From assembly GCF_053078305.1 (NCBI RefSeq), contig NZ_CP166879.1: a stretch of 64,000 nucleotides of DNA; one strand, written 5' to 3'. Of this stretch, positions 5,773 to 6,712 are shown piece after piece. A program made the translations under genes and the position numbers. The notes under the pieces were generated by a model. The model was not told the origin of the DNA and made no database searches. It worked only from the letters and a program-made list of their open reading frames with translations. Each line of letters begins with the position of its first letter. Position 1 is the stretch's first letter.

Positions 5773-6144
5773 ATGCGAATTTTCAAAAACGCCTGGTTTG
5801 AACGTTTCGCCCGAAAACATCGGATTTCCGATAAATCGCTGCGCGAAATCGTGGAGCAGGCCGATAAGGGGATCATATCCGCAAATTTGGGTAGTGGTGT
5901 CATTAAACAAAGATTAGCCCGAAGTGGTGGCGGAAAATCAGGCGGTTACCGGACAATAATTTTTTACCGCGTTGCAGAAAAAGCCTTTTTCATCTACGCA
6001 TACGCAAAGAATGAACGAGAGAATATCACCGCTATAGAGGAAAATGCTTTTCGAAAAGCCGCTCCCCATGTCCTCAATCTTACTGATGAACAGCTGGCAC
6101 AATTGATTCTACAAGGCCAGTTCACGGAGGTACCCAATGAGTAA
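5773..6144 (+). CDS. Type II toxin, RelE/ParE superfamily (HigB-2-like)
   Basis: 123 aa; GGGKSGGYRTIIFY motif resembling the HigB-2 toxin family; 8-nt overlap with the downstream HTH gene. Confidence 0.6.
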   Translation: MRIFKNAWFERFARKHRISDKSLREIVEQADKGIISANLGSGVIKQRLARSGGGKSGGYRTIIFYRVAEKAFFIYAYAKNERENITAIEENAFRKAAPHVLNLTDEQLAQLILQGQFTEVPNE

Positions 6145-6454
6145 AAATTACCGCAGTGATGCACTTGCATCTGTACATGAAATGATGGAGTCACTCCATG
6201 ATATCGGTGCAATCACAAAACAAACTATGCGCGAATTCGATGAAACTTGTCTTCAGCCTGCGCCGGTAATGTCTCCAGAAAGGATCCGTGCACTGCGAGA
6301 ACGAGAGCATCTGTCTCAACCTGTTTTTGCCAGATACCTCAACGTCAGTAAAAACCTGATATCAGACTGGGAACGAGGAGTGAAACGCCCGGGAGGTGCA
6401 GCTCTTCGGCTTCTTTCAGTTGTCGAGAAAAACGGGATCCAGGTAATATCCTGA
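6137..6454 (+). CDS. HTH (XRE-type) antitoxin partner, HigA-2-like
   Basis: 105 aa; helix-turn-helix segment LSQPVFARYLNVSKNLISDWERG; translationally coupled to the toxin. Confidence 0.6.
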   Translation: MSKNYRSDALASVHEMMESLHDIGAITKQTMREFDETCLQPAPVMSPERIRALREREHLSQPVFARYLNVSKNLISDWERGVKRPGGAALRLLSVVEKNGIQVIS

Positions 6455-6524
6455 TATTCTAATACAACAAAACCCGCCGAAGCAGGTTAAGTGCGGGTGC
6501 GTTGAGGATGCCTGGCACATCAGA

Positions 6525-6547
6525 GGTGGCGAGGGATTTCTCCCTCG
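6525..6547 (-). other. Stable stem-loop just 3' of hok; possible 3' fold-back element of the hok mRNA
   Basis: Perfect 9-bp stem GGCGAGGGA / TCCCTCGCC with loop TTTC; no U-tract. Confidence 0.35.
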
Positions 6548-6556
6548 CCTGGTCTC

Positions 6557-6712
6557 TTACTCCTCAGGTTCGTAAGCTGTGAAGACAGCGACCTCCGTCT
6601 GGCCGGTTCGGATTCGTACCTCGCAGAGGTCTTTCCTCGTTACCAGTGCCGTCACTATGACGGTTAAACAGATGACGATCAGGGCGATTAACATCGCCTT
6701 TTGCTGCTTCAT
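6557..6712 (-). CDS. hok: Hok-family type I toxin (HokD/RelF-like)
   Basis: 51-aa product MKQQKAMLIALIVICLTVIVTALVTRKDLCEVRIRTGQTEVAVFTAYEPEE; the ORF-track extension upstream is mok-like. Confidence 0.85.
   Translation of the reverse strand: MKQQKAMLIALIVICLTVIVTALVTRKDLCEVRIRTGQTEVAVFTAYEPEE

Follow-up and report, generated by a model that had tools for sequence, protein, structure and literature searches.

Genes and features of the locus

The DNA analysed here (the window) is a stretch of 64,000 nucleotides from contig NZ_CP166879.1 of assembly GCF_053078305.1, and it includes a lambdoid E. coli prophage, integrated at tRNA-Ser, whose nin-like region carries a cluster of three small toxin-antitoxin (TA) genes. 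An initial annotation, made from the letters of the window, had described a RelE/ParE-superfamily toxin of HigB/HigA-like type coupled in toxin-first order to a helix-turn-helix (HTH) antitoxin, a Hok-family type I toxin about 100 bp away on the other strand, and a perfect stem-loop past the hok stop codon. Every feature that it named was found where it had been placed, far beyond what chance would give, and the nin-like setting was borne out by the prophage context. The features discussed below are as follows.

5270..6465, no strand: variable prophage segment of about 1.2 kb, from the start codon of a phrog_1212 gene to the hok terminator, defined by breakpoints against five other prophages
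5322..5516, minus strand: 64-aa open reading frame (ORF) of phrog_31309 (E = 7.8e-48), divergent from the type II operon
5736..5772, plus strand: conserved block at the 5' end of the type II cassette, where the homology shared with copies elsewhere begins
5773..6144, plus strand: type II toxin gene, 123 aa, HigB-2/PF06296 ("PF_RelE") family by a full-length Pfam match
6137..6454, plus strand: type II antitoxin gene, 105 aa, with an HTH domain (HTH_3 and HigA-2 matches)
6466..6882, minus strand: inferred hok mRNA of about 417 nt, from an Rfam match, the predicted fold and a terminator scan
6488-6471, minus strand: hok terminator hairpin with a T-run, from the terminator scan
6507-6495, minus strand: fbi element of the hok mRNA, from the minimum-energy fold
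6528..6549, minus strand: perfect stem-loop in the hok 3' UTR, seen in the sequence, its stem forming in the minimum-energy fold
6557..6712, minus strand: hok (HokD-type) type I toxin gene, 51 aa (Pfam Hok/gef PF01848, E = 3.5e-23; phrog_251)
6557..6769, minus strand: mok, an ORF of 70 aa that includes hok in the same frame, from the ORF list; it is collinear with mokW as annotated in phage 933W
6726..6754, plus strand: candidate sok promoter, TTGCCT-17-TAACCT, invariant in three aligned hok loci and 7 nt before the Sok start
6761..6831, plus strand: predicted Sok antisense RNA of about 71 nt with the 3' end GGGGCTTTT, placed by an alignment without gaps to sokW as annotated in phage 933W
6882-6871, minus strand: tac element at the 5' end of the hok mRNA, from the minimum-energy fold
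6889..6917, minus strand: candidate hok promoter, TAGAAA-17-TAAAAT, from a consensus scan, 7 nt upstream of the inferred +1

The type II operon runs rightward and ends at 6454, and hok runs leftward and ends at 6557; this makes the arrangement convergent (tail to tail), with 102 nt between the two stop codons. The pair had at first been called divergent from hok, a description that had to be corrected; the gene truly divergent from the type II operon is the 64-aa ORF. This ORF has no Pfam match, and its C-terminus is weakly similar to Rem. It occurs in exactly 168 genomes, the same number as carry the whole 3948-6900 arrangement, and in this context it travels with the type II cassette.

The type II toxin and antitoxin

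The family assignment of the 123-aa protein, which the initial annotation had proposed as a check, came out in favour of its reading. In a Pfam profile search the toxin covers PF06296 ("RelE") from position 1 to 120 of 120 (E = 6.6e-47, 159 bits), and this domain is present in all 120 toxin homologues listed. The only PDB relatives are HigB-2 chains, and V. cholerae HigB-2 itself is reached by phmmer with E = 4e-4. PF06296 corresponds to the HigB-2 family, which is characterized by a toxin-first gene order and by ribosome-dependent mRNA cleavage (PMC11980606). The catalytic residues of VcHigB2 are R51, R64, Y82 and K84 (PMC5416850), and in a pairwise alignment they correspond to R47, R60, Y77 and K79 of the window toxin, in which the segment GGGKSGGYRTIIFY occupies residues 52-65. 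Across 30 homologues R60 and K79 do not vary, and R47 and Tyr75 are nearly invariant. An AlphaFold2 model built on a 30-sequence alignment was of low confidence (mean pLDDT 64, falling below 50 in the beta-sheet core, and pTM 0.59), and a Foldseek search of this model against the PDB returned noise, with a best E-value of 0.63 and none below 0.1; thus, the RelE fold is predicted from sequence homology to the solved HigB-2 structures. No NCBIfam model matched the toxin, and a literature search for COG4737 found nothing. On its sequence relationships, the protein is assigned to the HigB-2 branch of the RelE/ParE superfamily.

The antitoxin and toxin genes share 8 nt (ATGAGTAA) at the toxin stop, and a GGAGG Shine-Dalgarno motif is found 6 nt 5' of the antitoxin ATG, in agreement with the coupling and the toxin-first order that had been noted at the outset. 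The 105-aa product matches phrog_2104 over its full length and contains an HTH_3 domain at residues 50-94 (E = 1.4e-7). The best PDB match is V. cholerae HigA-2 (5JAA), with E = 6.7e-8 over residues 45-99. The 44 residues that precede this region have no detected sequence similarity to the N-terminus of HigA-2, only the HTH half being aligned, so that the mode of toxin binding by the N-terminal segment is a predicted one.

The pair thus shares with HigB-2/HigA-2 of V. cholerae (PDB 5JA8, 5JAA; PMC5416850) the PF06296 domain, the toxin-first order, a glycine/lysine-rich beta2-beta3 loop followed by R-[TI]-I-I, the four aligned catalytic positions, and an antitoxin with a presumed N-terminal binding region ahead of a C-terminal HTH. 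The relationship is a distant one, and HigBA-2 resides in a chromosomal superintegron, whereas the window pair is carried by a prophage. A much closer relative is the relE-yiaG module of E. coli VREC0535 (toxin SQP90372.1, antitoxin SQP90371.1), whose toxin clusters with the window toxin at 90% identity and which likewise has the toxin first and a YiaG/HigA2-like HTH antitoxin. The E. coli toxin cluster that includes SQP90372.1 was modelled in silico only, as a relE-yiaG module, in a paper that does not discuss a prophage or hok context (Gerdes, mBio 2025, PMC11980606).

Homology to copies of the cassette in other prophage contexts starts exactly at 5736, and an inverted repeat, TAACAC-TAT-GTGTTA, lies at 5739-5753, 20 nt 5' of the toxin ATG; the repeat is conserved across contexts, including phage PhiR12_3. 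The 5736..5772 block is therefore a candidate operator and promoter core. A consensus promoter scan found no convincing sigma-70 site adjoining the toxin ATG, and its sole plus-strand match (5628-5657) lies 116 nt upstream of the toxin, outside the conserved cassette. Both candidates for the type II promoter fail to convince.

The hok/mok/sok locus

The Hok peptide is 100% identical to HokD of K-12, and the hok mRNA block (6466..6882) is conserved in all of the hok loci that were compared. The Rfam family RF01794 is matched at 6707-6882 with 121 bits (E = 3e-28), well over the gathering score of 59, and the start of this match is consistent with the position of the candidate hok promoter. In both the minimum-energy and centroid folds of the inferred mRNA, GGGUGCUUGAGG pairs with CCUCAACGCACCC, which corresponds to the tac-fbi closure known from plasmid R1 hok/sok (z = -6.9 against 100 shuffles).

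The interval 6713-6850 had been singled out by the initial annotation for a sok-like antisense promoter, and it contains both Sok and a candidate promoter, collinear with sokW. The strand and coordinates of Sok were taken from the annotated sokW and not from the Rfam "sok" match, which falls on the same strand as hok, stops at the hok AUG and is consequently read as the region of the duplex between the hok leader and Sok. The sok promoter agrees with the consensus at 7 of 12 positions, which is weak, and its assignment is accordingly tentative. The closest annotated locus is hokW of the Stx phage 933W, with about 93% DNA identity to the window hok over 410 bp and with mok, Sok and promoter positions collinear; the two differ in several bases in the region of the Sok 5' end and in location, as the 933W locus is near the right end of the phage and that of the window is in the nin region.

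The stem-loop that had been noted past the hok stop codon is indeed perfect, with a 9-bp stem and a 4-nt loop (GGCGAGGGA-TTTC-TCCCTCGCC), and it starts 7 nt past the stop. It was considered as the hok terminator and rejected, since no T-run follows its stem and a hairpin with a T-run is found instead at 6488-6471. As in hok of plasmid R1, the stem-loop probably forms the end of the active hok mRNA after its 3' processing. With mok, Sok and its predicted promoter, and the tac-fbi pairing all retained, the type I locus looks intact and complete. Chromosomal hok loci tested in earlier work gave no post-segregational killing (bioRxiv 10.1101/2025.08.07.668861).

Two cassettes and their possible role

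The gene content and family membership described above, together with the intactness of the genes, the purifying selection on the type II pair and the distribution among genomes, very probably reflect two independent, conventional TA cassettes placed tail to tail, one a type II module of the HigBA2 ("relE-yiaG") type and the other a complete type I hok/mok/sok locus. By homology, the type II toxin would be an mRNA endonuclease that depends on the ribosome and cleaves codons in its A site. It would be neutralized by the N-terminal ~45 residues of the antitoxin, while the C-terminal HTH would dimerize and repress the operon, probably at the inverted repeat that precedes the toxin ATG by 20 nt; once the labile antitoxin is lost, the toxin would be free. 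In the type I cassette, the full-length hok mRNA would be held inactive by pairing of its 5' (tac) and 3' (fbi) elements until trimming of the 3' end activates it, and the short-lived Sok RNA would block translation of mok and hence that of hok. By the same analogies, the two cassettes would serve prophage stabilisation and/or the exclusion of other phages.

In a set of 5,426 complete E. coli genomes, the three-gene cluster is found in 200 and is labelled by RefSeq as a RelE/ParE family toxin, an HTH protein and HokD. Because both cassettes are thus already annotated and catalogued, the finding is an ordinary one, and its importance beyond annotation is small. What the window does offer is a prophage-borne HigBA2/relE-yiaG module with a putative role in prophage addiction or phage exclusion.

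Exclusion has been considered as the primary function, in which case the type II pair, by itself or together with hok, the 64-aa ORF or both, would form an abortive-infection system; another phage would lower the level of the antitoxin or of Sok, and the freed toxin would stop the infected cell. This proposal concerns the role of the genes and is compatible with the two-cassette explanation. The cassette is borne by a prophage and its operon reads against the flanking phage genes, as would an accessory cassette with its own promoter. It is found in only 3-4% of genomes, for the most part in Shiga-toxin-producing strains with many prophages. The hok/sok system of plasmid R1 excludes phage T4, and a role of Hok in phage defence has been reported in the literature, although hok genes are not enriched near defence systems. 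Other HigB toxins of the RelE/ParE superfamily bring about abortive infection within toxin-antitoxin-chaperone systems (PMC11980606). However, none of the 5,027 models in PADLOC-DB v2 is matched by the toxin or by Hok, and the antitoxin matches generic HTH models only, at ~20 bits. Moreover, most members of the toxin family are found on plasmids (583 plasmid records), and sequenced phages seldom carry them (one close match among 50,697), a distribution that an addiction role fits equally well. A primary function in abortive infection is thus regarded as unlikely.

Prophage context and relationship to K-12 relBE

The prophage Qin of K-12 carries relB-relE-hokD (relBEF), and the initial annotation had placed the window pair at the equivalent position, as the outcome of exchange at a TA hotspot. 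In its strict form, this reading makes the type II module an allele of K-12 relBE, exchanged beside hokD at a single prophage hotspot. Both prophages are Qin-like, with DicA/DicC immunity, ydfU/DUF968 and Q; their HokD proteins are identical, and the hok coding region and 3' UTR are 98.5% identical. In both, a RelE/ParE-superfamily module lies within 0.1 kb of hokD, and the DNA is variable on both flanks of the 430-bp hok block.

The modules themselves differ in family, strand and side. K-12 RelE belongs to PF05016 and is encoded antitoxin-first on the same strand as hokD, whereas the window toxin belongs to PF06296 and is encoded toxin-first, convergent with hok. Furthermore, relBE lies directly 5' of hokD, where it replaces the mok/sok leader (the homology ends 14-15 nt before the hokD ATG), while the window pair is found beyond the hok terminator on the 3' side, at the place taken by rem in K-12, and leaves the hok leader intact. 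The breakpoint alignment therefore puts the two modules on opposite sides of hok, which contradicts a single shared junction, and allelism with the Qin relBE was rejected; the difference is not a swap at one junction. The window supplies an intact reference for a HokD-type locus with the mok/sok leader that K-12 hokD has lost to relBE.

The hotspot was also poorly borne out. The content of the slot that separates the hok terminator from the next gene is polymorphic: the slot may be "empty" (75 bp) or occupied by 368 bp of non-coding DNA, by rem-like genes (405-418 bp) or by the type II cassette. Nevertheless, within a spread of 60 records and four fetched loci, this cassette was the only TA module found there. 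Conversely, the same cassette (5736-6443) is present at two other prophage positions, without hok, which indicates that the cassette moves rather than that the site collects toxins. Taken together, these observations make an exchange with relBE improbable. No convincing direct or inverted repeats that would mark transposition or site-specific insertion were found at the edges of the 1.2-kb variable segment. According to the breakpoint maps, the minimal type II cassette (5736-6443) and the block that contains hok (6466-6895) are each a small mobile unit, able to recombine into various positions of lambdoid prophages, which is useful background on the traffic of accessory ("moron") genes.

Integrity of the type II pair

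A further question is whether the pair is a decaying remnant, with a toxin that is catalytically dead or harmless and an HTH protein that is a mere transcription factor. In the related copy of phage PhiR12_3, a frameshift disrupts the toxin next to an intact antitoxin, which indicates that members of this lineage can decay, and the K-12 YiaG is a solitary homologue. In addition, most close homologues have Phe at the position equivalent to Tyr82 of VcHigB2 (toxin position 77), although the window toxin has Tyr. On the other side, the toxin ORF is intact with its four catalytic positions aligned, the overlap between the two genes is maintained, and intact 123-aa copies are found on thousands of contigs. 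Compared with an 87%-identical variant, the toxin has a dN of 0.07 with saturated synonymous sites, and the dN/dS of the antitoxin is 0.03; these values point to strong purifying selection on both genes, and a dead or decaying pair in the window is very improbable.

Also very improbable is a type II to type I relay, possibly involving the co-travelling 64-aa Rem-like ORF, which would wire the two TA systems together functionally inside one prophage. Only 16 nt separate the end of the type II operon, which lacks an intrinsic terminator, from the terminator hairpin of hok, whose T-run is on the hok strand only, so that read-through from the type II promoter would give an RNA antisense to fbi and to the 3' end of the hok mRNA, and de-repression upon antitoxin loss might in this way alter the processing or activation of hok mRNA.

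Finally, the VREC0535 toxin is recorded as 171 aa long with a "disordered N-terminal extension", compared with the 123 aa of the window toxin. The corresponding upstream frame in the window is interrupted by four stop codons, and a minor correction of the published account is suggested: the extension ascribed to this RelE lineage is probably an annotation artefact.

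Prophage Context

The window starts inside a lambdoid prophage that reads leftwards and has the following landmarks:

1272-2330, DNA methylase
2891-3586, Q-like gene
3573-3935, RusA
3948-4997, DUF968
about 10.7-12.5 kb, replication genes
13265-13672, DicA
18523-19548, integrase
19601-19690, tRNA-Ser(cga), which the integrase adjoins and after which comes yeeJ (2,691-aa ORF)

Because this lambdoid gene content surrounds the toxin-antitoxin modules, their placement in a nin-like region by the initial annotation is correct. The prophage ends at the integrase, and four tRNA-Asn(gtt) genes are situated farther along (areas for the prophage end and the tRNA genes together: 19601-19690, 20682-20757, and 35406-39713). 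This part of the chromosome is the asn-tRNA region, a known site of island insertion.

Type II Module and Its Family

Two ORFs from the ORF listing make up the type II operon, which runs against the neighboring phage genes:

5773-6144, + strand, toxin, 123 aa, with GGGKSGGYRTIIFY at residues 52-65
6137-6454, + strand, antitoxin, 105 aa, its ATG overlapping the toxin stop by 8 nt (ATGAGTAA)

Reading of the sequence (5400-7200) places a GGAGG 6 nt 5' of the antitoxin ATG. The toxin is a full-length match to Pfam PF06296 "RelE" (E 6.6e-47) and also matches phrog_5869. The 2025 survey by Gerdes assigns V. cholerae HigB-2 to PF06296 and describes the members of this family as ribosome-dependent mRNases encoded in a toxin-first gene order (PMC11980606). 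HigB-2 chains are the only solved toxin relatives by sequence (E 4e-4 in a single-sequence search and 4e-5 with a 30-sequence profile), and the toxin residues R47, R60, Y77, and K79 align with R51, R64, Y82, and K84, the catalytic residues of VcHigB2 (PMC5416850). Every one of 30 homologues has R60 and K79, and almost every one has R47; Tyr75 also hardly varies, and position 77 is most often Phe. The antitoxin carries an XRE-type HTH (residues 50-94) and has HigA-2 as its best solved relative (E 6.7e-8); its weak resemblances to the MqsA C-terminal, PRK10072, and NadS models are each under the model's cut-off. The AlphaFold2 model of the toxin had a pLDDT of only 64, and a Foldseek search with that poor model gave noise, so that the RelE fold is a homology-based assignment.

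Against an 87%-identical variant taken from a different prophage, the toxin gene has saturated synonymous sites and a dN of 0.07, and the antitoxin gene has a dN/dS of 0.03; both genes are under strong purifying selection. The Pfam PF06296, HTH, and Hok/gef matches bear out the original family calls (RelE/ParE-type toxin, HTH antitoxin, Hok), and the identity and intactness of the modules are well supported.

Both modules are ordinary and had been annotated before. Public databases already contain entries identical to the toxin and the antitoxin, under the names "type II toxin-antitoxin system RelE/ParE family toxin" and "DNA-binding transcriptional regulator", respectively. Also in the toxin's 90%-identity cluster is SQP90372.1 ("RelE of E. 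coli VREC0535"), which Gerdes used in a model to illustrate a "bicistronic relE-yiaG module" (mBio 2025, PMC11980606). SQP90372.1 is 171 aa long, with an N-terminal extension called disordered, whereas the window toxin has 123 aa. This extension is probably an annotation artefact due to a mis-called start, because the matching window frame (5605-5772) contains four stops, 26 of 30 aligned toxin sequences start at MR[IV]FKNAWF, and a Shine-Dalgarno-like GAGG precedes the ATG at 5773.

hok Locus

The type I locus has the following parts:

6557-6712, − strand, hok ORF (ORF listing), 51 aa, Pfam Hok/gef, E 3.5e-23
6557-6769, − strand, mok, collinear with mokW
6761-6831, + strand, Sok RNA, placed by aligning it without gaps to the sokW annotated in phage 933W, ending in GGGGCTTTT
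6917-6889, − strand, candidate hok promoter, promoter-like TAGAAA-17-TAAAAT, 7 nt before the inferred +1 at 6882
6528-6549, − strand, perfect stem-loop (9-bp stem, 4-nt loop), starting 7 nt past the hok stop and just inside the fbi element
6488-6471, − strand, hok terminator, hairpin and T-run, from a terminator scan

The Hok peptide is 100% identical to K-12 HokD. The Rfam RF01794 match (6707-6882, 121 bits) runs along the hok strand as far as the hok AUG, and therefore reports the conserved leader. A search of 6713-6850 for a sok-like antisense promoter had been suggested, and the sokW-aligned Sok is found there, with an invariant TTGCCT-17-TAACCT, the candidate sok promoter, 7 nt 5' of it. 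In the folded 6882-6466 segment, the 5' end GGGUGCUUGAGG pairs with CCUCAACGCACCC (6507-6495; z = -6.9). The predicted pairing is the tac-fbi lock, a typical trait of hok mRNAs. By analogy with plasmid R1, the stem-loop, already noticed in the initial annotation, probably serves as the 3' hairpin of hok mRNA after processing to the active form.

In three otherwise near-identical leaders (window, 933W, and O145), substitutions concentrate at the Sok 5' end and its target (window 6757-6777), the pattern expected if co-resident hok/sok loci diverge, avoiding cross-talk. E. coli genomes have a median of 2 matching places (maximum 9). The Hok Tyr47 codon TAC (6572-6574, − strand) is within UUACGAA, the TadA-like motif; for Tyr-to-Cys recoding by A-to-I editing there are reports on hokB, hokC, hokD, and hokE (bioRxiv 10.1101/2025.08.07.668861).

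Comparison with the K-12 Prophage Qin

The type II pair had been described as divergent from hok and as occupying the place equivalent to relBE of Qin, neither of which holds. The operon and hok converge (5773-6454, +, versus 6557-6712, −), with 102 nt between their stops. The terminator scan shows none belonging to the operon, which ends next to the hok terminator, a unidirectional one. This makes type II read-through antisense to the hok 3' end conceivable; a link between the two systems by this route is very improbable.

The K-12 order is ydfU, rem, hokD, relE, relB on a single strand. Window 3948-5308 matches the ydfU side at 82%, and 6469-6726 matches hokD and its 3' UTR at 98.5%. This homology ends 14-15 nt 5' of the hok ATG, beyond which K-12 runs into relE, whereas the window runs into the mok/sok leader. 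In K-12, relBE thus lies 5' of hokD, where it has taken the place of the regulatory leader of hok, whereas the PF06296 module lies 3' of hok, at the position that rem occupies in K-12. The two are therefore not alleles of one site, a relationship that the breakpoint alignment rules out.

Variable Slot and Movement of the Cassette

One end of the variable segment is the phrog_1212 start codon (5269), and the other is the T-run in the hok terminator (6466). In four fetched loci and a spread sample of 60 records, the slot is occupied by one of the following:

75-bp spacer
non-coding DNA, 368 bp
rem or rem-like gene, 405-418 bp
the window's 1.2-kb segment

The slot content is thus variable; no other toxin-antitoxin module was seen in these records and loci, and the hotspot idea is unproven. 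Of 5,426 complete genomes, 200 have the 1.3-kb trio of toxin, antitoxin, and hok genes; Shiga-toxin-producing strains, O145 and O157 among them, account for many of these.

The type II cassette moves between prophage positions. An 87%-identical toxin variant occurs on >650 contigs, in other lambdoid prophages, at two other positions, just before ninB and near the integrase. In each location it runs opposite to the phage genes, always has an ORF6N antirepressor gene as its neighbor, and has no hok nearby; a third gene after the module encodes a classical HigA-type HTH protein of 101 aa. Only 5736-6443 is common to the window and the variant loci, so that the shared DNA begins 37 nt 5' of the toxin ATG, and these 37 nt include a conserved inverted repeat, TAACAC-TAT-GTGTTA. 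This variant is also present in PhiR12_3 (PV340552, 4227-4973), an inducible ECOR13 phage, as a cassette copy with ~80% DNA identity; its toxin is frameshifted near codon 15 and its antitoxin is intact, which may reflect an orphan antitoxin or a sequencing error.

Possible Roles

Close homologues are rare in sequenced phages (1 in 50,697 records), and distant ones (<=59% identity) are common on plasmids (583 records, 250 of them Acinetobacter). This bias towards plasmids, together with the plasmid stabilisation known for higBA loci (PMC11980606), favours an addiction or stabilisation role for the type II module. It is possible that the modules act in phage exclusion, for which other HigB toxins (PMC11980606) and Hok (bioRxiv 10.1101/2025.08.07.668861) provide precedents; however, the toxin matches no PADLOC model and hok genes are not enriched near defence systems (bioRxiv 10.1101/2025.08.07.668861), and the abortive-infection idea is unproven.

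Small ORFs beside the Modules

Two further ORFs flank the modules:

5322-5516, − strand, 64-aa ORF, phrog_31309, divergent from the type II operon
6984-7157, + strand, 57-aa ORF, antisense to the phage genes, just past the hok promoter

The 64-aa ORF has no Pfam match and is confined to the 168 genomes that have exactly this full arrangement. Its C-terminus is faintly Rem-like (GF[VI][ML]R..E.V.SL..L.E...AG), and the ORF may be no third component but a rem allele that has diverged. The 57-aa ORF has no match in PHROG or NCBIfam, and its region is different in the O145 relative. It has a promoter-like site (6958-6985), its stop is followed by a GC hairpin (about 7167-7187), and it may be another small accessory gene.
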